A stretch of DNA of 54,816 bases from Minisyncoccota bacterium (GTDB taxonomy: Bacteria; Patescibacteriota; Minisyncoccia; UBA6257; 02-FULL-45-10c), in contig JAQURY010000001.1 in NCBI GenBank assembly GCA_028715395.1, positions 1 to 54,816 of the forward strand. Reading direction: 5' to 3'. Below are positions 16,855 to 25,456 of the stretch, piece after piece. Positions within the stretch are counted from its first letter, which is position 1. Every line of letters starts with the position of its first letter. Below the pieces are notes generated by a model that saw only the letters and a program-made list of their open reading frames with translations, was not told the origin of the DNA and searched no databases. The position numbers and the translations under genes were made by a program.

Positions 16855-17421
16855 TCAGTGTGTCTGCGAGTTTCCTCGCGTCTTTCCTTTTCCGAATTGC
16901 CACTCGATGTAAACGAGCGGGATGAAGGGTGCTATCGTTTTCAGCGAGCCGAGAGAACTGTTCGTCCTTTCGTCTGAGCTGTAATTCGAAGGCAGTCCGT
17001 CATCGTCGTTTCCGTCGTCGTTGGTGTCTGTGGGGAATGGGTTATTCGCGATGATGGAATCGGCTGTTGCCGCTCCTGCCGCGAACGCGACTACGTTTGA
17101 AAGTATCTTCGCCCATTTCTCCCACTGGGATTCCTGGTACTTGTCCTTGGCGTTGATGTCGGGCTTGTTCGCCTTTATGGCGATAAGCGAGCCACCTCCG
17201 CAAAGTCCTGCGCCGATGCACAGGTATTGTACCGGAGCGTCGGGCTGGATTGTCATCCTGAGTCCCGCGCCTGCCATGAACATCCCGAGCATGGACGGAA
17301 CCATCCTGTAACCGGTCGGCTCCTTCTTCACGGTCAGGTCGATTTCCTGCGCGTGAAGCGCGGGAACCAGCGTTGCTATGAATGAAACTACGACCAGCAA
17401 AACAAGCATTTTCTTGTTCAT
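16855..17421 (-). CDS. hypothetical secreted protein, GC-rich cassette B
   Basis: Sec-type signal MNKKMLVLLVVVSFIATLVPALHA|QE. GGAG SD 5 nt upstream of the ATG. TTTACA-N17-TATATT with a TG extension upstream. Gly/Ala-rich hydrophobic core and an Asp-rich segment. No family recognised. Confidence 0.5.
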   Translation of the reverse strand: MNKKMLVLLVVVSFIATLVPALHAQEIDLTVKKEPTGYRMVPSMLGMFMAGAGLRMTIQPDAPVQYLCIGAGLCGGGSLIAIKANKPDINAKDKYQESQWEKWAKILSNVVAFAAGAATADSIIANNPFPTDTNDDGNDDDGLPSNYSSDERTNSSLGSLKTIAPFIPLVYIEWQFGKGKTRGNSQTH

Positions 17422-17632: not shown

Positions 17633-18328
17633 ATGGAGGAACAGGGAGCAAAGGCAGCGAAGAAAACGAACGTCTGGATTTTCGTTGGCGTGGCTGTCGC
17701 CATTTTGGCAATAGCTGCGTTTGTCGCGATGAAATATATCGCGCCGAAAACACCGGCGGTGAAGCAAGAGACAGTTGCGATCAGTTCCGCTCCGGCAAGC
17801 GTAGCCGTAGCCAAATCAACGGCGCCGGCTGTATCGGCTAAGGTGAAGCCGCAGCCGAAAAAGAAAGCCGCGCCGCAGGAAGCCGTGGCAGCGAAGCCGG
17901 AGGTAAAGCCAAAAGCCGAACCGAAAGCCGAACCGCCCAAGGAAACTGCAAAAGCTCCGGCCAAGCCCGAGAACATGATTTTTGAAAAAATGAACGATCA
18001 GGTTGCCAGAGCCAAGAGCAAACTGACTGCGGAAGAAATTCAGCGCTGGTTATGCTGGATGTTCAAAATTCCCGACAGCCAGAAAGACGCCAAGGTTTCG
18101 CTCGGATGGATAAGAGAACAAAACGGAATCTGGGGCGCGAAGCTTATGTATGACGAATCCGGCATGGCGGCGAAATTCCCGCAAAAGCAGAAGGCCAAAG
18201 ATTTTTTGATTGAATATAACACGGCTTTCAGCGAAAAGCAGGACGAAGATTTCGACAAATTCGTCGAAACAGTGCCCGGAAAAGCTGCGGGAGACGTGTC
18301 CATGGTAGCGGCAATGGAGAAAAAATAG
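17633..18328 (+). CDS. hypothetical membrane-anchored protein with Pro/Ala/Lys-rich linker, GC-rich cassette B
   Basis: AGGAGA SD 6-7 nt upstream of the ATG. N-terminal TM WIFVGVAVAILAIAAFVAM. Low-complexity PAK-rich stretch followed by a ~110-aa C-terminal domain. No family recognised. Confidence 0.5.
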   Translation: MEEQGAKAAKKTNVWIFVGVAVAILAIAAFVAMKYIAPKTPAVKQETVAISSAPASVAVAKSTAPAVSAKVKPQPKKKAAPQEAVAAKPEVKPKAEPKAEPPKETAKAPAKPENMIFEKMNDQVARAKSKLTAEEIQRWLCWMFKIPDSQKDAKVSLGWIREQNGIWGAKLMYDESGMAAKFPQKQKAKDFLIEYNTAFSEKQDEDFDKFVETVPGKAAGDVSMVAAMEKK

Positions 18329-18388: not shown

Positions 18389-19436
18389 ATTTCTTTTCGG
18401 CCAATACCACTTTTATTTCCAGCTGTTTTTTGCCTCGGAGGACTTTTAAGCTTAAAATGTCTCCCGGCGCCATGTTCTCCAGGAAATCCTGGATTGTTTT
18501 CTGGGGAGTCAGGCATTCTCCGTTGCATTCGGTAATAACATCTCCTTCTTTGATGCCGAATTTTTCCGCCGGAGTGTTCGGGACGACTCCTTGGACTTTC
18601 GGATCTTTGGCTCCGGCAACCAGCGCGCCGTGGTCAACGGGTAATTTCATTTTTTCCTGGAAGTTTTTATCTATGTTTATGTAAAGCAATCCAAGTAGTG
18701 GCCGTTTTACCTTGCCGTATTTTTTAACATCATCCAAATCCCGCTTGGCGGAATTTATTGGAATCGCAAAACCTATATTTTGCGCTCCGAAAACCACTGC
18801 CGCATTGATAGCAACAACTTTTCCATTCTCATCTATCAGCGGCCCGCCGGAGTTTCCCGGATTGATTGCCGCGTCGGTCTGAATTAATCCGCGGAGTTCT
18901 TGAATCGGGGAGTTCATATCTGCTTGAGCCGCGACCGCCCGCGATAAACCGGAAACGATTCCGCGCGAAACTGTATTTTGAAAAATTCCCAGCGCGTTCC
19001 CGATAGCATAAACAGTTTGTCCTAAATCCAAATGAGATGAGTCTCCCAGATTTATTGTGGGAAGTCCATTTGCCTGTATTTTTAAAATAGCCACATCATT
19101 TATCGGATCAAGGGCCGTTACCTCGGCTTTATATTTTTTCCCGTCGGCTGTAACCACGGCATACTCCGATTTTTTGTCCGCAATAACGTGTTTGTTGGTA
19201 AGGATAAGTCCGTTGGAATCAACAATAAAACCCGAGCCGCCTCCAACTTGAATCATGCCGTGGATATCGGCGTGCTGTTTAAGATTCTTTTTTAATTCGG
19301 GCAAGCCAAACGGCAAAAGCGGAATCATTTCCGCCGGTATTTCTTTTTCCACATTTTCCAGGCTTTTTGATATGACAATTGCGACTATTGCCGGAAGAAC
19401 GCCTTTAATTGTTTCGGTAACATTTTTTTCCATCAT
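18387..19436 (-). CDS. htrA: HtrA/DegP family serine protease with PDZ domain
   Basis: Trypsin-like triad context (LTNKHV, DVAILKI, GNSGGPL) plus a C-terminal PDZ-like region. Confidence 0.9.
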   Translation of the reverse strand: MMEKNVTETIKGVLPAIVAIVISKSLENVEKEIPAEMIPLLPFGLPELKKNLKQHADIHGMIQVGGGSGFIVDSNGLILTNKHVIADKKSEYAVVTADGKKYKAEVTALDPINDVAILKIQANGLPTINLGDSSHLDLGQTVYAIGNALGIFQNTVSRGIVSGLSRAVAAQADMNSPIQELRGLIQTDAAINPGNSGGPLIDENGKVVAINAAVVFGAQNIGFAIPINSAKRDLDDVKKYGKVKRPLLGLLYINIDKNFQEKMKLPVDHGALVAGAKDPKVQGVVPNTPAEKFGIKEGDVITECNGECLTPQKTIQDFLENMAPGDILSLKVLRGKKQLEIKVVLAEKK

Positions 19437-19527
19437 GTGATTATTTTAACACTTGCGATTAGAAAGTGATATGCACAATTTTAAATTGGCGGACTTGTCC
19501 GCCGTAGGTCGCCTTTGCGACCGGAGG

Positions 19528-19614
19528 CGGAAGGTGGAGGATTCGAACCTCCGAGAGGCTTTCGCCCCAACCGCATTTCGAGTGCGGCGCACTAGACCAC
19601 TATGCGAACCTTCC
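19528..19614 (-). tRNA. tRNA-Ser (CGA)
   Basis: Hand-folded cloverleaf. Acceptor ggaaggt/accttcc, 3-bp D stem, anticodon arm ccgca-CTCGAAA-tgcgg, 18-nt variable arm, T arm ggagg-ttcgaat-cctcc. CCA not encoded. Confidence 0.9.
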
Positions 19615-19653
19615 TAATATATTCATTATATAATACATATCTTTTCTAAAAAC

Positions 19654-19680
19654 AAAAATGTCCGCTTGCGCGGGCACTTT
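19654..19680. terminator. hairpin terminator downstream of the DUF5679-like gene
   Basis: Stem tgtccgc / gcgggca with loop ttgc, flanked by an A-run and a T-run. Confidence 0.5.
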
Positions 19681-19758
19681 TGATGGCTTCCTCACAAAGC
19701 CTTTTTTCTATCTATCCTATTTAGAATGATAGCAAGATGAAAATTTCTGTCCAGCGGC

Positions 19759-19917
19759 TTATTTCGCTCCCATGATTCTGAACATCTTTGTTCCGCAATT
19801 CGGGCAAATGCCGGTCATCGCTCTCCTTTCTTTTCCTCCTTTTCCTTGCATTGAGACCTCTTTGGCGTCTTTCATTTCTCTTTTCGCCTTACATTTTACG
19901 CAATATGCTTCTGTCAT
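19759..19917 (-). CDS. small zinc-ribbon protein, DUF5679-like (52 aa; not in the ORF track)
   Basis: Hand translation: MTEAYCVKCKAKREMKDAKEVSMQGKGGKERRAMTGICPNCGTKMFRIMGAK. The CxxC...CxxC layout and length match my memory of the DUF5679 family. Confidence 0.6.
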   Translation of the reverse strand: MTEAYCVKCKAKREMKDAKEVSMQGKGGKERRAMTGICPNCGTKMFRIMGAK

Positions 19918-20089
19918 AGTTATTTAAATAGGTTTTTTGTGGTCGCGACCTTTCTAAGAAGACGACCCACCCTTATTTTTACTTAAAATAAGTATACCAC
20001 CCCTTAAAATAAGGGGCAACCGCCTTAAAATCCTTAAAAAGTTTGCTCTTTCGCCATAATAATATAGTATTTTATATGTAATTAGGCTC

Positions 20090-20161
20090 GCCCCTGTAGT
20101 TCAATGGATAGAACAGATCCGTCCTAAGGATAAGATGGGAGTTCGATTCTTCCCGGGGGCA
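20090..20161 (+). tRNA. tRNA-Arg (CCT)
   Basis: Acceptor gcccctg/cgggggc, D arm gttc-aatggata-gaac, anticodon loop gTCCTaa, T arm gggag-ttcgatt-cttcc. The D arm resembles E. coli tRNA-Arg(CCU). Confidence 0.85.
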
Positions 20162-20208
20162 CAAAATTGAAAAAATATTCAATTTGATTATTATATTAAG
20201 AGTTGGTT

Positions 20209-20279
20209 GGGCCTATAGTATAGCGGTAGAACGCCTCCATGGCATGGAGGAGGTAGGAGTTCGACTCTCCTTAGGTCCA
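20209..20279 (+). tRNA. tRNA-Ala (GGC)
   Basis: Acceptor gggccta/taggtcc with the G3:U70 identity pair. Anticodon arm cctcc-atGGCat-ggagg. T arm aggag-ttcgact-ctcct. One D-stem mismatch. Confidence 0.8.
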
Positions 20280-20292
20280 CAGAGAAATTAAA

Positions 20293-20313
20293 AACGCCAA
20301 GAGGCGTTATTTT
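20293..20313 (+). terminator. terminator after the tRNA-Arg / tRNA-Ala pair
   Basis: aacgcc aaga ggcgtt followed by atttt. Confidence 0.6.
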
Positions 20314-20317
20314 GTCC

Positions 20318-20346
20318 TTGACTTTTTGCTTAAAATATGCTATATT
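20318..20346 (+). promoter_or_regulatory. sigma70-like promoter for cassette C gene
   Basis: TTGACT (20318-20323), 17-nt spacer, TATATT (20341-20346). Confidence 0.55.
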
Positions 20347-20352
20347 TTTTCC

Positions 20353-20374
20353 AACGCTGAAAAAGCGTTTTTTA
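20353..20374 (+). promoter_or_regulatory. terminator-like hairpin in the 5' leader of the cassette C gene (possible attenuator)
   Basis: aacgct gaaaa agcgtt followed by ttttt. It sits immediately downstream of the predicted transcription start and about 60 nt before the ATG. Confidence 0.4.
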
Positions 20375-20434
20375 GTTAAAGATCCTTTACATATAGAGGT
20401 GGAATAGGGCGTCTTACTTAAATGGAGGGTGAGA

Positions 20435-21592
20435 ATGGAAACAAAGTACAGCGAGATCGTGATTCCGAAAGAACCGAGTTTGCTGGTGGTTGTCATCGTA
20501 TGGCTTCTGAGCAGATTCGGGGAAAATAAATTTCCTGGAATCAAGAAGGCCAGGGTTCTGTCCTGCGAGAACATGAGCAAGAACGTTTCTCTCCAGGAAT
20601 ACGAACTGAGAGGCACGGTGTTCGCCGGCTTTGCGGGAGGATGTCTCGAAAAATTCTCCTTCAACATGGCCGCAAACATATGGCGCGTGTGCGCTGCGTG
20701 TTTCTTGCGGGAGCTGGAAGTCGTCAACTCCGTTTTGAGCGAAATGCTCAGGTTTGTTTTAAAAGAACCCAACGGATCGGCGACCCTTCTCACCTTCAGC
20801 GGCGAACTGGAAAGCCAGCTGAAGAAAAATCCTGATCACCCCGAAAAGGCGGTCGAATGGATGATGGCCGTGCTGGACGCGAGGTATCAGTCAGAGCTGG
20901 ATGTCATCGAAGAAAAGAGGCAGAAGGCCCTGGAGAAGATGAAGGCGAAGGAGCTGGCGGAACTGGAGAAAAAGAAGGCGGAAGCAAGAAGGAGGCTCGC
21001 GAAAGGAGAGTTCAAAACCATCAACGGTGCCAAAGGAAAAAAGCTGACGATGCTCAGCATTTATTCCAATGGCGATCTCTCCGGCGACGACGTTTGCAAA
21101 TATGCCCTTATCTTGGGCATAGACGTGGTCGTTATGGCGAAGCGTTCGGGATATCCCGAGATTTACCTGAGCGAAAGCTCTGGTATGAAGCTGTGGGATA
21201 CCGCGCGGGTACTCCGGTACTTCGAGCGGAAATCCAAGCCCATCGCGGACCCGAAAGAGCTTGCGGCCACAGGAGTGGTTGCGGAATGGTTCTTGCATGA
21301 ATCCGGGCTGATACTGCTGAACAGAGGGAACAGAACCAGCAGTTCTTTCGAACGGATAAAGAACCTCGTCGAGACGGTCCTGGATCAGGACTCTTTCGAT
21401 CCGCAGTGCGCCGAGGAATGCAAAAAGGGAAATTGCGCGGCGAAAAACAGAAAACACTGCGCGATGTTTCCCTGGGGGCTCTGGCGCTGCCGCTACATGA
21501 GATGGGCGATGTGCCACAGAGCTGAGGCCAAGCAGAACCAGGACCAAAAGGAAGCTCGGGAGGAGCTTCAGAAAGAAACGGTTTTGGCTTAA
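20435..21592 (+). CDS. hypothetical protein, GC-rich cassette C (385 aa; central coiled coil, C-terminal Cys/Trp/Arg-rich tail)
   Basis: GGAGGG SD 6 nt before ATG 20435 (track start is GTG 20429). Charged heptad-like stretch EEKRQKALEKMKAKELAELEKKKAEARRRL. C-terminus CAEECKKGNCAAKNRKHCAMFPWGLWRCRYMRWAMCH. No family recognised. Confidence 0.55.
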   Translation: METKYSEIVIPKEPSLLVVVIVWLLSRFGENKFPGIKKARVLSCENMSKNVSLQEYELRGTVFAGFAGGCLEKFSFNMAANIWRVCAACFLRELEVVNSVLSEMLRFVLKEPNGSATLLTFSGELESQLKKNPDHPEKAVEWMMAVLDARYQSELDVIEEKRQKALEKMKAKELAELEKKKAEARRRLAKGEFKTINGAKGKKLTMLSIYSNGDLSGDDVCKYALILGIDVVVMAKRSGYPEIYLSESSGMKLWDTARVLRYFERKSKPIADPKELAATGVVAEWFLHESGLILLNRGNRTSSSFERIKNLVETVLDQDSFDPQCAEECKKGNCAAKNRKHCAMFPWGLWRCRYMRWAMCHRAEAKQNQDQKEAREELQKETVLA

Positions 21593-21673
21593 TAGCAAAA
21601 ATCCAAAAAGGAGAATCTGCCTATGTCCAACAATGGCTCTATAAAAAAATAGGGTTCGAGCCAACCCTAACGA

Positions 21674-21727
21674 CCCCCATTGGAATGTCGGCCACAAGCT
21701 GACAATCCAATGGGGGGTTTCTTTTTA
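21674..21727 (+). terminator. compound hairpin terminator after the cassette C gene
   Basis: 11-bp outer stem cccccattgga / tccaatggggg, inner stem gtcggc / gctgac, then gtttcttttt. Confidence 0.7.
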
Positions 21728-21738
21728 CGGTAATTTGC
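21719..21738 (+). repeat. direct repeat, left copy (ttctttttacggtaatttgc)
   Basis: Matches 21870-21887 (ttcttttcggtaatttgc) apart from a 2-nt indel. The two copies bracket tRNA-Ser(TGA). Confidence 0.6.
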
Positions 21739-21774
21739 CGAAGAAAAATAATCCTGTTAAGATTTTTAAATAAT

Positions 21775-21864
21775 GGTGGGGTGTGTGAGTGGTTTAAACA
21801 GACAGTCTTGAAAACTGTTATGCCTGAAAGGGCATCGTGAGTTCGAATCTCACCCCCACCGCCA
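21775..21864 (+). tRNA. tRNA-Ser (TGA), CCA encoded
   Basis: Acceptor ggtgggg/ccccacc, anticodon arm acagt-cTTGAaa-actgt, 18-nt variable arm, T arm gtgag-ttcgaat-ctcac, 3' gCCA. Confidence 0.9.
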
Positions 21865-21869
21865 TTTTG

Positions 21870-21887
21870 TTCTTTTCGGTAATTTGC
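21870..21887 (+). repeat. direct repeat, right copy (ttcttttcggtaatttgc)
   Basis: See 21719-21738. It runs directly into an extended -10 element tgcTATAAT at 21885-21893. Confidence 0.6.
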
Positions 21888-21925
21888 TATAATAATTTAG
21901 AGGTTAAAAAATTAAAGATAAAAAT

Positions 21926-22219
21926 ATGAGCGAAGCAATTAAAACAAACGAAAAAAATTTGGTCGCATTATTCAGTTATTTGGGACTTTTAATTTTAATT
22001 CCTTTATTTGCCGTTAAGCATGACAGGTTTGTCCATTTTCATTTAAGACAGGGGTTGGTTTTGTTGGTTATAGGAGTATGTGCGGCAGTGCCTGTCGTAG
22101 GACCAGCATTTGCTTTGGCTTACATGATTTTTATGATTATTGGAATACTCAATGTTTTGAAAGGTGAAGAAAAACATTTGCCGCTTATTGGTCAATATGC
22201 GGAAAAATTTAAAATATAA
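21926..22219 (+). CDS. small membrane protein, DUF4870-like
   Basis: 97 aa with predicted TM helices. The FVHFHLRQGLVLLVIG motif resembles the DUF4870 family. Confidence 0.55.
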   Translation: MSEAIKTNEKNLVALFSYLGLLILIPLFAVKHDRFVHFHLRQGLVLLVIGVCAAVPVVGPAFALAYMIFMIIGILNVLKGEEKHLPLIGQYAEKFKI

Positions 22220-22223
22220 AATA

Positions 22224-22787
22224 ATGAGCAAAACTATAAAAATAATAATTATTGCAGTTGTAATTATCGGCGCTATCATTTTGTACGCGACATCCGTTTA
22301 TAACAAATTAGTCACTATGAGCACATCGGTTGACGCTCAGTGGGCGCAAGTGGAAACGCAATATCAGCGGAGAGTTGATTTAATACCGAATCTTGTAGAG
22401 TCGGTCAAAGGAGTCATGAAACAGGAGACAACAGTATTTCTTGGTATTGCCGAGGCCAGAAAAAGCTATGCGGGAGCCACTTCTGTTGAAGAAAAAGTAA
22501 AAGCCGGCAATCAGGTTGAAAGCGCTCTGGGCAAACTTTTGGTTATAATGGAAAATTATCCTCAACTTAATTCTTCTCAGTCGGTTCAGACCTTAATGGC
22601 CCAGCTTGAGGGAGCGGAAAACAGAATTAGTGTTGAGAGAACGCGATATAATGATGCTGTTAAAACATTTAATTTGACGATAAAGAAATTACCGGTAAAT
22701 ATATTTGCCGGAATGTTTGGATTTATTCAAAGAGATTATTTTGAGGCCGCTCCCGGAGCCGAGAACGCGCCTTCCGTAAGTTTTTAA
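22224..22787 (+). CDS. lemA: LemA family protein
   Basis: Start moved to MSKTIKIIIIAVVIIGAIILY (TM). Contains YNKLV...VDAQWAQVETQYQRRVDLIPNLV and RYNDAVKTFN, typical of LemA. Confidence 0.85.
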   Translation: MSKTIKIIIIAVVIIGAIILYATSVYNKLVTMSTSVDAQWAQVETQYQRRVDLIPNLVESVKGVMKQETTVFLGIAEARKSYAGATSVEEKVKAGNQVESALGKLLVIMENYPQLNSSQSVQTLMAQLEGAENRISVERTRYNDAVKTFNLTIKKLPVNIFAGMFGFIQRDYFEAAPGAENAPSVSF

Positions 22788-22795
22788 CATTTCCA

Positions 22796-23662
22796 ATGAA
22801 TTTTTCCGTTAAAAAGTGGATTATTACCGCGGTTATTTTATTGCCGGTTATTTCTTTCGCCTATGTTAATCCGGGCGTGCCGACCGGTTTTGTTAACGAT
22901 TTTACCGGAACTTTGACTGCAGATCAGAAACAGCAGCTGGAAACGAAAATATCGGCATTTGAAAAATCTTCAAGCAATGAAATATCCATTGCGATTATTC
23001 CCGATTTGGGCGGAGACACGATTGAAAATTTCGCGGTAAAACTTTTTGAAGACTGGAAAATAGGAAAAGAAAAAAATGATAATGGAGTTCTGGTTTTAGT
23101 GGCCATGAAAGACAGGGAAATGAGAATCGAGGTGGGTTACGGCTTGGAAGGAGCGCTTACGGACGCGCAGAGTTATTGGATTATTAATAATGAAATGACA
23201 CCGAATTTCAAAGCGGGAAATTATTATGCGGGAATAAACAGCGCGGTTGATAAAATAATCGCGGCTACGCAGGGGGAATATATTCCGTCCGAAAGCAAAA
23301 AAAGCGGCAATATAAATTTCCCCGGAATTTTATTTTGGGGCGCCATTACTTTTACTTTTTTGGCCAGGATATTGGGCGTTTCCAAGTCGTGGTGGGAGGG
23401 CGGCGCGCTTGGCGCGGTCGCGGGACTGATAGTCGGATTTATAAACGGATTTACAATTGTCGGAATTATTTGGTTTATATTTTTGGTTATATTCGGATTT
23501 TTATTTGATTTCTTCGTTTCCAAAAGTTACACAAAAGGAAAAACTACCGGAGTAATGCCGTGGTGGTGGCACAGCGGAGGGCATGGTGGTCATGGCGGAG
23601 GAGGGTTCGGCGGTTTTGGCGGAGGCGGTTCCGGCGGCGGCGGCGCCAGCGGAAGATGGTAA
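22796..23662 (+). CDS. TPM domain protein (YgcG-like) with TM segments and Gly-rich tail
   Basis: VNDFTGTLTADQKQQLE...EISIAIIPDLGG...GVLVLVAMKDREMRIEVGYGLEG matches the TPM_phosphatase pattern. The usual LemA neighbour is present. Confidence 0.8.
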   Translation: MNFSVKKWIITAVILLPVISFAYVNPGVPTGFVNDFTGTLTADQKQQLETKISAFEKSSSNEISIAIIPDLGGDTIENFAVKLFEDWKIGKEKNDNGVLVLVAMKDREMRIEVGYGLEGALTDAQSYWIINNEMTPNFKAGNYYAGINSAVDKIIAATQGEYIPSESKKSGNINFPGILFWGAITFTFLARILGVSKSWWEGGALGAVAGLIVGFINGFTIVGIIWFIFLVIFGFLFDFFVSKSYTKGKTTGVMPWWWHSGGHGGHGGGGFGGFGGGGSGGGGASGRW

Positions 23663-23709
23663 AACTTTGTATAGTATATGCTAATATTAGCATATACTAT
23701 ACAAAGTTT
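23662..23709. repeat. perfect 48-bp palindrome (24+24, no spacer)
   Basis: aaactttgtatagtatatgctaat | attagcatatactatacaaagttt, verified base by base. It starts at the last base of the TPM gene stop codon. Confidence 0.9.
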
Positions 23710-23712
23710 AGG

Positions 23713-23740
23713 AGCCGTTTTGTTATGCAAAACGGCTTTT
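23713..23740 (+). terminator. intrinsic terminator after the TPM gene
   Basis: 10-bp stem agccgttttg / caaaacggct with a 5-nt loop, then tttt. Confidence 0.7.
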
Positions 23741-23776
23741 GAATTTACGGGGAAATGTATCTATTATAAAGAAAGA

Positions 23777-25306
23777 ATGTCTAACTTGTTTTTATCCAAA
23801 TTCAGGCCGTATGCCTGGATTGCTCTCGCGGTTTTTTTGCTTTATGCGCAAACTTTGTTTTTTAATTTTTCCTATCTGGACGACAATGTTTTGATTCTTA
23901 ATAATCAGCGTTTTCTGGCGGGAAATATCGGGGCTGCTTTTACGAATAACGCTTTTTTTTCCGCCACGCAGTCGTTTTATCGCCCGATTCTTACTCTTTC
24001 GCTCATGCTTGATTACCAGATTGGGGGATTGTCGCCTTTTATTTATCATTTTTCAAATGTCATTTATCACGCCGTTGCCTGTTGCCTGCTTTTTGCTTTT
24101 TTGTTTAAGCTCGGATTCAGGCGCGATTTAAGTTTTATTTTCTCATTATTTTTTGCGGTGAGTCCGGTTTTGAATCATGCGGTGGCTTGGATTCCGGGAA
24201 GAAACGATATTTTGTTCGCGATATTCGCTCTGGCAAGCTTTATTTTTTTGTTAAATTTTTGGAAAAATAAAAAATGGGGATATCTTGCGGCCCATTTCGT
24301 TTTTCTCGGCCTGGCTTTTCTGACAAAAGAAAGCGCGGTTGTTTTGCCCGCACTGGCATCGATTTATTATTTTTTGGTTAAAAAAGGAAATTGGCGAGAA
24401 ATGATTGTGCCGGCGGCAGGGTGGATTGCGGTTGCGGGGCTTTGGGTATTTGTCAGGCATCTGGTTTTTACCCAGTCTTTTGTTTTTGGAATTTCCGACA
24501 GCCTGAATTATTTGGTTCGGGGCGTTCCGGCCCTGATGGTTTATTTGGGCAAAGCGATTTTTCCGTTTAATCTTTCGGTTTATCCCGTGATGGCCGATTC
24601 AACTCTTGTATTCGGGCTTATGGTCTTGGCCGCATTGGCCTTCCTCATATTCATTTCAAAAGGAAATCAGACGGGCTGGATTATTTTTGGCGCGTTCTGG
24701 TTTATTTCGTTTTTGGCAGTTTCTTTTCTGGTTCCAACCGATAATTTTTTGGAACACCGCGCGTATTTGCCTCTGGCGGGAATAATAATTTTAATGCTGG
24801 GAATCGGCTGGATTGAAAAAATAAATCTGGAAAATGTTTATAGCGCGGGAATTGTGATTTCCGTATTTTTGGGATTATTTTTAATTTCTTTTTTAAACAG
24901 CGGAAATTACAGCGACAGGCTGTCTTTCTGGCAGAGCGCTTCCCGGTCATCGTCTCATTCGGGCATAGTATGGAATAATTTGGGAGCGATACATTATCTG
25001 AATGGCGATTTTTCCGCCGCTGAGGATAAATTCAAGCGGGCGCTGGAAGCAAATCCTAATGAGCCGCTTGCGCACAACAACTTGGGACTGATTTATCACC
25101 AAAGGGGAGAGCTTGGCAAGGCGGAAGCGGAATATCTGGCCGAATTAAAAATTAATCCGTACAGCGGAGAATCTTATTACAATTTGGGAATTCTTTATGC
25201 AAATGAAAATAAAATTGGATTGGCGGTGGAGTCCTGGAAAAAGGTCTTGGAAATAAATCCGAACAGCCAGGACGCAATTAATGCTTTGAAATCGCTGGCG
25301 CGATAG
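23777..25306 (+). CDS. polytopic membrane protein with C-terminal TPR repeats (PMT/ArnT-like glycosyltransferase fold suspected)
   Basis: Start moved to MSNLFLSKFRPYAWIALAVFLLY. There are about 10 TM helices followed by TPR-like repeats (WNNLGAIHYLNGDFSAAEDKFKRALEANP...). The glycosyltransferase assignment is by architecture only. Confidence 0.6.
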   Translation: MSNLFLSKFRPYAWIALAVFLLYAQTLFFNFSYLDDNVLILNNQRFLAGNIGAAFTNNAFFSATQSFYRPILTLSLMLDYQIGGLSPFIYHFSNVIYHAVACCLLFAFLFKLGFRRDLSFIFSLFFAVSPVLNHAVAWIPGRNDILFAIFALASFIFLLNFWKNKKWGYLAAHFVFLGLAFLTKESAVVLPALASIYYFLVKKGNWREMIVPAAGWIAVAGLWVFVRHLVFTQSFVFGISDSLNYLVRGVPALMVYLGKAIFPFNLSVYPVMADSTLVFGLMVLAALAFLIFISKGNQTGWIIFGAFWFISFLAVSFLVPTDNFLEHRAYLPLAGIIILMLGIGWIEKINLENVYSAGIVISVFLGLFLISFLNSGNYSDRLSFWQSASRSSSHSGIVWNNLGAIHYLNGDFSAAEDKFKRALEANPNEPLAHNNLGLIYHQRGELGKAEAEYLAELKINPYSGESYYNLGILYANENKIGLAVESWKKVLEINPNSQDAINALKSLAR

Positions 25307-25348
25307 CTTTATTTTTTAACACAATTTCATTAATATACTAAAATAAGC

Positions 25349-25419
25349 GGGCCTATAGCTTAGTGGTAGAGCACCCGGTTTGCATCCGGGAGAGAGGAGT
25401 TCGATTCTCCTTAGGTCCA
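25349..25419 (+). tRNA. tRNA-Ala (TGC)
   Basis: Acceptor gggccta/taggtcc with G3:U70. Anticodon arm cccgg-ttTGCat-ccggg. T arm aggag-ttcgatt-ctcct. Confidence 0.9.
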
Positions 25420-25456
25420 CAAAATCCATCAGGGCGTCATTGAAGAAAAAATAAAT

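Follow-up and report, generated by a model that had tools for sequence, protein, structure and literature searches.

The window analysed in this study, a 54,816-nt stretch of contig JAQURY010000001.1 (assembly GCA_028715395.1, a Minisyncoccota bacterium), carries a single open reading frame (ORF) of 385 codons (20435..21592, + strand) between the genes for tRNA-Ala(GGC) (20209..20280, +) and tRNA-Ser(UGA) (21775..21864, +). The questions raised by this locus are what the gene encodes, how it came to lie within a tRNA array and whether its product still has a role. A sequence-only reading had described it as a self-contained, GC-rich cassette inserted into a tRNA cluster and encoding a protein of no recognisable family, and all of the sequence features which it listed were found where it had placed them. 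The evidence considered here favours, with a probability of roughly 0.6, a maintained non-catalytic derivative (pseudoenzyme) of a two-domain DHH/DHHA1 phosphoesterase, acquired by the ancestor of the genus. What appeared to be an orphan cassette may thereby become an interpretable case, in which a dated horizontal acquisition took up a slot within a tRNA array and the copy of one species then lost the catalytic site completely but kept the fold.

Scans of the window protein against Pfam, PHROGs, NCBIfam and PADLOC gave nothing meaningful, and a word-indexed homology search returned only the protein itself. A phmmer search of 1.84 billion representatives recovered 241 relatives at E <= 1e-3, the best with 35% identity. 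The family was reached by six-frame searches of 60 related genomes, two of which contained homologues: the only congeneric genome (G001, hereafter the congener; 368 amino acids) and a genome of the same order but of a different family (G051; 352 amino acids). These two proteins share 50% identity with each other but only about 32-33% with the window protein. When the congener's protein was used as the query, more than 295 clusters (at 90% identity) of hypothetical proteins of around 350 amino acids were found, nearly all labelled Patescibacteria, which exposes a sizeable family without a Pfam or NCBIfam model. A profile of 36 family sequences matched the ORF with E = 4.1e-51 across positions 2-357 of 359. 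On these alignments, the window ORF is best placed in this unnamed family as a highly divergent member, with about 30% identity, and given this full-length match and the fold described below, the earlier view that no family was recognisable does not hold. The family profile identified the ORF as the sole copy in its genome. The gene was found in three of 61 related genomes, and a scan of GTDB representatives located the family at 76 loci (L053-L128). A sequence-profile search of the PDB using the family produced chance matches only.

AlphaFold models built on the family alignment reached a predicted local distance difference test (pLDDT) score of 88 for the window protein and 91 for that of the congener. 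Both models show two alpha/beta domains connected by a long helix, which covers residues 136-187 in the window model compared with 141-173 in the congener model; the central charged coiled coil noted earlier is this long, charged helix. Foldseek searches against the PDB matched the congener model to the yeast exopolyphosphatase PPX1, the phosphodiesterase NrN and the entry 6mtz at probabilities of 0.98-1.0. The window model matched an archaeal PAP phosphatase (probability 0.84, E = 2e-3) and, more weakly, 6mtz (about 0.5) and GdpP and DhhP (0.2-0.3), with E-values up to 0.1. The template modelling (TM) scores of these matches were low (0.2-0.3), as expected for differing domain orientations. 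Most of the named matches, namely PPX1, GdpP, DhhP, the PAP phosphatase and NrN, are DHH/DHHA1 phosphoesterases, and the entry 6mtz corresponds to a protein that has not been characterised.

Two motifs are invariant in the family, T-H-x-x-P-H-x-D-E near the N-terminus and G-G-G-x-F-D-E-H, of which the last four residues are literally F-D-H-H in several members. The family also has an invariant cysteine in an ECAATL segment and a C-terminal tail of the form C-x4-C-x7-9-C-x9-C. The two domains with their long connecting helix, the N-terminal His/Asp/Glu motif and the F-D-E-H or F-D-H-H at the position of the DHH motif are all features shared with the DHH/DHHA1 superfamily (NrnA, pAp phosphatase, GdpP, DhhP, PPX1, NrN, RecJ, MYG1), and this structural link suggests that the family belongs to that superfamily. 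The motifs resemble those of MYG1 (HxxxHxDE and GG..R-F/Y-D-x-H). Unlike the superfamily, the family possesses a C-terminal four-cysteine tail and an invariant cysteine in its N-domain, and the window protein lacks every one of the motif residues. Mutation of the DHH motif in MYG1, a DHH-family RNA exonuclease, abolishes function (PMC6582341). Weak matches of the N-domain to another Pfam model, ChrB_C (PF09828), were observed in 16 of the 36 members (best E 9e-6); the congener's score of 22.7 bits lies below the curated cut-off of 25, the window protein has no match, and no functional inference is drawn.

The loss of the motifs in the window copy is complete. Codons 10-18 (20462..20488, +) read I-P-K-E-P-S-L-L-V in place of T-H-x-x-P-H-x-D-E, and codons 71-74 (20645..20656, +) read L-E-K-F in place of F-D-E-H (F-D-H-H in some members), so that seven of seven motif residues are replaced (H11P, H15S, D17L, E18V, D72E, E73K and H74F). 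Nearly all of the 70 full-length family ORFs from GTDB representatives keep all seven or the DHH variant, and only the window copy keeps none. By analogy with characterised members of the superfamily, the lost residues would be those involved in catalysis or metal binding. Another ORF (L125, 3342-5057, 571 amino acids) aligned poorly to the family because its intact N-domain is followed by a second, degenerate one. A "dead" subfamily uniting L125 with the window copy was considered and rejected, given the intact N-domain and a match of just 77 amino acids at 30% identity. The degenerate domain of L125 does begin with IVVPAYPSL, which resembles the IVIPKEPSL around the dead motif of the window protein.

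A precedent for a DHH-superfamily fold that was kept while catalysis was lost, with a scaffold role, is provided by Cdc45, a subunit of the eukaryotic replicative helicase with a DHH fold and no nuclease activity. Cdc45 is ancient and conserved in all eukaryotes; the window protein, by contrast, arose in one lineage only, from a family that is active elsewhere, and no sequence relationship between the two would be expected.

The divergence of the window protein extends well beyond the motifs. It keeps 44 of the 86 alignment columns that show conservation in 85% or more of the 36 members, compared with 77% kept by the next most deviant member. Its terminal branch measures 3.06 against a median of 0.34 and, in a larger tree, 2.02 against 0.43 for its sister, an acceleration of approximately fivefold. 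The window and congener copies are 33% identical as proteins (55% in coding nucleotides), while the neighbouring HtrA is 66% identical between the two genomes. What has been retained is far from random: 35 of 52 structural columns (Gly, Pro, hydrophobic, aromatic and Cys) are preserved, compared with 9 of 34 polar ones (Fisher p = 3.5e-4), and by our own count the C-terminal domain with the tail retains 23 of 37 conserved columns, a better record than the 19 of 41 in the N-domain. The four-cysteine tail, C-x4-C-x7-C-x9-C (codons 329-352; 21419..21490, +), is still present and accounts for the Cys/Trp/Arg-rich tail reported before. C334, C342 and C352 occupy invariant family columns, C329 is shared by the window, congener and G051 copies, and the cysteine of the ECAATL segment is also retained (C86). 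At least five insertions and seven deletions distinguish the window copy from the family, all of them in frame. They include a tandem 33-nt duplication (20915..20980, +; 20915-20947 and 20948-20980, encoding KRQKALEKMKA and KELAELEKKKA) in a region that, compared with the family, is an insertion of 22 residues; the duplication makes the inter-domain helix longer and so explains the apparent coiled coil.

The absence of all motif residues and the very long branch would also be expected of a decaying relic, that is, a gene which has lost its activity and is heading under relaxed selection towards deletion, its open frame being a leftover helped by high GC content. Two further observations fit such a relic. 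A terminator-like hairpin occurs in the leader of the window copy only, and the gene has been parted from iscS-iscU, which flank it in the congener and neighbour it in four other lineages. On the other hand, a relic would not be expected to show at least 12 indels that are all in frame, a far better retention of structural than of polar columns, an intact cysteine tail with Cys86, or a promoter and Shine-Dalgarno (SD) sequence that remain intact and conserved. The persistence of 385 open codons after some 2-3 substitutions per site would likewise be very unlikely without selection, the chance of such a frame in random sequence of the same composition being about 5e-9. Decay is hence considered unlikely, albeit an alternative to be taken seriously, and maintenance as a non-catalytic protein is the explanation that is probably correct. 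The retention of frame, core, C-terminal domain and cysteine tail points to binding or scaffolding without hydrolysis as the most likely present role, and the window protein is presumably still made and useful.

The age of the gene in its present position can be judged from related genomes. The array, which begins with tRNA-Arg(CCU) (20090..20162, +), is found in eight genera of the taxonomic family. In the congener the order is tRNA-Ser(CGA) on the minus strand, tRNA-Arg(CCU), tRNA-Ala(GGC), the homologue and tRNA-Ser(UGA), with tRNA-Ala(GGC) 94% identical to that of the window; the two copies are thus positional orthologues. The tRNA-Ala(GGC)-tRNA-Ser(UGA) interval is empty in representatives of five genera, measuring 2 bp in G004, 7 bp in G009, 21 bp in G021, 68 bp in G002 and 81 bp in G013, and is 316 bp long in G011. 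In the two genomes of the genus studied here it is 1476 and 1494 bp and contains the DHH-like gene. Elsewhere it holds other cargo: a hemerythrin-like gene with three small opposite-strand genes in genus g3 (1812 and 1980 bp), an O-acetylhomoserine-sulfhydrylase-like gene and others in G006 (2370 bp), and GC-rich cargo including a ComEC-like gene in G017 (5330 bp). The cargo loci examined were L040 2278-4257 (G003), L041 1327-3623 (G014), L042 5658-8027 (G006) and L043 1774-7103 (G017). Since the slot is empty or otherwise filled in these relatives and the gene itself is so rarely present among the 61 genomes, the slot is regarded as variable and the gene as having arrived in the ancestor of the genus. 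The interval between tRNA-Arg and tRNA-Ala also differs in places, with an ORF of 87 amino acids of the GIY-YIG type in G014 and 1.6 kb in G011.

These comparisons bear directly on the idea of a recent mobile cassette, according to which the unit reached the tRNA cluster independently of a recombinase, under attenuation control and with a trailing mini-ORF. Its deviant composition, the empty sites in related genera and its own promoter and terminator agree with that idea, and the claim of an insertion into a tRNA cluster stands. It was not recent, however, as the congener holds a homologue in the same slot, itself with a high GC content at third codon positions (GC3 0.65), and the synonymous divergence between the two is nearly saturated, which largely refutes a new arrival. 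The unit consists of a single ORF and, as had been stated, contains no recombinase; no integrase was detected in it by family-library scans either. No direct repeat of a tRNA 3' end was found at the far border, the repeat search returning only T-arm words shared by the three tRNAs, and searches of IMG/VR viral contigs, INPHARED phages and PLSDB plasmids yielded no relatives. Nor are the leader hairpin and mini-ORF conserved, as detailed below. A recent cassette is therefore extremely improbable. As a possible tRNA-like att remnant, a hairpin at 21650-21669 was aligned visually to the 3' termini of tRNA-Ala and tRNA-Ser; the alignment was unconvincing and no such repeat was found. The locus resembles tRNA-flanked genomic islets in its adjoining tRNA genes, its foreign composition and its slot occupied or empty by genus, but differs from them in having no integrase and no att-like tRNA 3' repeat, and in being a single gene that is fixed and old.

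The window and congener copies were recovered as sisters (Shimodaira-Hasegawa-like approximate likelihood ratio test, SH-aLRT, 86), and a tree constrained to contain this clade was not rejected (approximately unbiased test, p-AU 0.89) and had an improved likelihood. Third codon positions of HtrA are 43.5% identical between the two genomes. At fourfold sites of conserved residues, identity amounts to 47% for HtrA and 59% for the DHH-like gene, or approximately 0.9 and 0.6 substitutions per site by our own Jukes-Cantor estimate; from this similar divergence the gene copies appear to have been separated for about as long as the genomes. The gene is accordingly viewed as an old, fixed insertion into the tRNA array, in all likelihood acquired horizontally, with the direction of transfer and the donor deduced indirectly. 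An exchange of the resident gene for a divergent allele, through recombination in the conserved flanks (xenologous replacement), might be suspected from the identity of 77-80% in the flanks against 55% in the coding nucleotides and 32-33% in the protein. The grouping of the window copy with that of the congener, the failure to find any closer relative among the 1.84 billion representatives (35% identity at best) and a fourfold-site identity no lower than that of HtrA all argue otherwise. The conserved segments of the flanks are moreover promoters and terminators, in which constraint is to be expected, and replacement is regarded as very unlikely.

The compositional deviation noted from the sequence was confirmed. 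The ORF has a GC content of 52.7% and a GC3 of 67.6% in a genome of 41.3% GC; its GC3 lies 3.7 standard deviations above the genome mean (0.437, standard deviation 0.065) and ranks second among 614 ORFs of at least 120 amino acids. A 268-residue ORF on the opposite strand (20891..21697, -) is, as had been supposed, a by-product of this high GC3 and not a gene, the evidence from homology and structure being all on the plus strand. Expression-linked codon bias was rejected as the source of the high GC3, since the values for EF-Tu, GroEL, RplN and RpoB/C are only 0.40-0.46. GC3 was 0.676 in the window copy, 0.650 in that of the congener and 0.422 in that of G051. The deviation is nevertheless not peculiar to this cassette: family genes exceed their neighbours in GC3 at 55 of 69 loci (mean excess +0.10, maximum +0.38, Wilcoxon p = 1e-8), by more than 0.2 at 14 of them, and most strongly in AT-rich hosts. 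A high GC3 is for this reason no mark of a recent arrival here, and the deviant composition suggests a family-wide habit of repeated transfer toward AT-rich hosts. The clade that is sister to the window and congener copies (SH-aLRT 88) has gene GC3 values of 0.77-0.85 in hosts of GC3 0.75-0.81; it is labelled "candidate division WOR-3" by NCBI. These numbers would fit transfer from a GC-rich donor, after which each lineage ameliorated in part, over about 0.3-0.45 substitutions per site. Further GC3-rich ORFs adjoin htrA in the window, at 16855-17421 (-; GC3 0.68) and 17633-18328 (+; GC3 0.60). The former was tried as a homologue of the GC-rich ORF beside htrA in the congener and rejected as not significant (E = 0.16).

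The description of the locus as a self-contained single-gene unit was borne out, its own promoter and terminator both being kept in the congener. The promoter is of the sigma-70 type, TTGACT-N17-TATATT with a TG before the -10 hexamer (20318..20346, +; 10 of 12 consensus matches), and that of the congener departs from it at a single position, with hexamers and spacer otherwise unchanged. The SD sequence GGAGGG (20425..20430, +) lies 5 nt before the ATG at 20435, and the congener has GGGAGG at equivalent spacing; an in-frame GTG at 20429 could also serve as the start, but its spacing from the SD is less favourable. Downstream of the gene, a hairpin said to have 6 bp (21650-21667) exists, with 7 bp and an extent of 21650..21669 (+). 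Its arms are TAGGGTT/AACCCTA in the window and TGAGGTT/AACCTCA in the congener, a difference of two compensatory pair changes. It is followed by a compound intrinsic terminator (21674..21727, +), recognised by repeat and inverted-repeat searches and by folding, in which the outer stem of 11 bp is as described earlier while the inner stem has 7 bp, one of them G-U, rather than 6; it is kept in the congener with covarying stems. The 3' untranslated region (UTR) folds far better than shuffled sequences (z = -5.5 in the window, -4.35 in the congener). A promoter-like region 5' of tRNA-Ser(UGA) (21724..21774, +; TTTACG-N17-AATAAT) contains about 50 nt that are near-identical in the congener. As the flanks of the gene retain an identity of 77-80%, with promoter, SD, hairpin and terminator kept despite near-saturated synonymous sites, these elements and the region before tRNA-Ser can be read, from this conservation, as functional.

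Two of the elements proposed earlier did not withstand comparison. The terminator-like leader hairpin AACGCTGAAAAAGCGTT with its T-run (20353..20374, +) was not found in the leader of the congener, and appears to be lineage-specific and of doubtful function. It resembles the terminator of tRNA-Ala just upstream, a hairpin (20293-20308; with T-run 20293..20314, +) closing the tRNA-Arg/tRNA-Ala transcript, at the position of which the congener has a hairpin that is present but different. The leader folds no better than shuffled sequences (z = -1.2 in the window, -0.4 in the congener), and attenuation control of the gene was rejected, as the hairpin is not conserved, the fold is not significant and there was no Rfam match, an Rfam scan of the 3-kb region having matched tRNAs alone. 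The hairpin, if terminating, would reduce expression in the window copy alone. The mini-ORF of nine codons, MSNNGSIKK (ATG 21623 to TAG 21652; with its SD-like AAAGGAGAA, 21610..21652, +), was likewise rejected as a gene or conserved element, its peptide being replaced in the congener by Met-Leu-stop following a 12-nt indel. An SD-like AAAAGGAGAA with an ATG at similar spacing is kept in both 3' UTRs (window 21610-21652; L006 8197-8222), and the ORF which it heads has nine codons in the window species and two in the congener.

Taken in order, the history that would best accommodate these observations begins with acquisition of the gene by the ancestor of the genus, probably from a GC-rich lineage. 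The gene would have settled between tRNA-Ala(GGC) and tRNA-Ser(UGA) together with a promoter and a terminator of its own. The sister species retained an intact enzyme. In the window lineage, all seven presumed metal-binding or catalytic residues (HxxxHxDE and DEH) were replaced, the 33-nt duplication extended the inter-domain helix and a C-terminal helix was added, the protein evolving about five times faster than its sister. With the frame, the structural core, most of the DHHA1-like domain and the cysteine tail kept, a binding or scaffolding role without hydrolysis would be the most likely outcome. Several points weigh against this history. None of the Pfam profiles for DHH and DHHA1 has a significant match in the window protein or the 36 family members, a search of the window genome, the congener and G051 with the MYG1/UPF0160 hidden Markov model (PF03690) gave none at E <= 10, and the catalytic role of the lost residues is argued by analogy. 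No close relative of the window genome has been sampled, so that relaxed selection on the fast branch is possible. The leader hairpin, terminator-like and confined to the window copy, could mean that the gene is being shut down. Finally, the nodes which link the window copy to the congener (86) and to the GC-rich clade (88) have moderate support and may be subject to long-branch effects. The occurrence of an intact and a dead orthologue in the same slot of sister species offers a natural experiment on a DHH scaffold without catalysis.

The surroundings of the family at its other loci provide some clues to its function. A tRNA gene lies within 400 bp upstream of 17 of 64 family genes, compared with 25 of 393 neighbouring ORFs (6.4%; odds ratio 5.3, p = 7e-6). 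The tRNAs concerned have at least 12 identities and occur in both orientations; no downstream enrichment was seen in the 76-locus set. The genes iscS-iscU, with or without an Rrf2 regulator, directly adjoin the family gene in four lineages: it lies beside iscS-iscU in L062, L083 and L089/L090, and beside the regulator gene and then iscS in L099 and L057. At the congener locus (L053) iscS-iscU are found just across the tRNA array from the family gene, and in the window genome an iscU-like gene is located on another contig (C5, at about 40.7 kb). Other recurrent neighbours are the CCA-adding enzyme (5-7 loci) and an S1-domain protein, infC and htrA (four loci each). Taken as leads, these neighbours suggest a role in the metabolism of RNA or nucleotides, and perhaps that the cysteine tail forms a site for a metal or an iron-sulfur (Fe-S) cluster. 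A more specific proposal would see in the family DHH phosphoesterases or exonucleases that carry a metal or an Fe-S cluster and are functionally linked to tRNA loci and IscS-IscU; the window protein would then be a domesticated, non-catalytic derivative that still binds the RNA or nucleotide ligand of the family, for instance as a regulator or decoy. This proposal draws on the five conserved cysteines, the roughly fivefold tRNA adjacency and the adjacency to iscS-iscU in four independent lineages, and is at present a speculative and rather doubtful reading. The recurrence of the family beside tRNA genes, cca and iscSU does supply testable leads in organisms in which RNA and sulfur metabolism are poorly known.

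A few minor observations were made around the locus and in the assembly. Two different full-length RpoB-like ORFs (C37 5034-8198 and C38 641-3865) are present in the assembly, which is consistent with the 6% contamination reported for this metagenome-assembled genome. In the window, the genes for tRNA-Ser(CGA), tRNA-Arg(CCU), tRNA-Ala(GGC) and tRNA-Ser(UGA) were located by ARAGORN, those for tRNA-Arg(CCU) and tRNA-Ser(UGA) by Rfam as well; that for tRNA-Ser(CGA) (19526-19614, -) lies upstream of the array. The surroundings of the array are rearranged between the congeners (window 19400-25450 compared with locus L006 of G001): htrA lies upstream of tRNA-Ser(CGA) in the window and downstream of tRNA-Ser(UGA) in the congener, and tRNA-Ala(UGC) lies 3.5 kb downstream in the window and adjoins tRNA-Ser(CGA) in the congener. 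A 15-nt direct repeat was also observed around tRNA-Ser(UGA), at 21724-21738 (TTTACGGTAATTTGC) and 21873-21887 (TTTTCGGTAATTTGC); its left copy falls within the promoter-like region kept in the congener, and its right copy reaches the -10 of the next gene.

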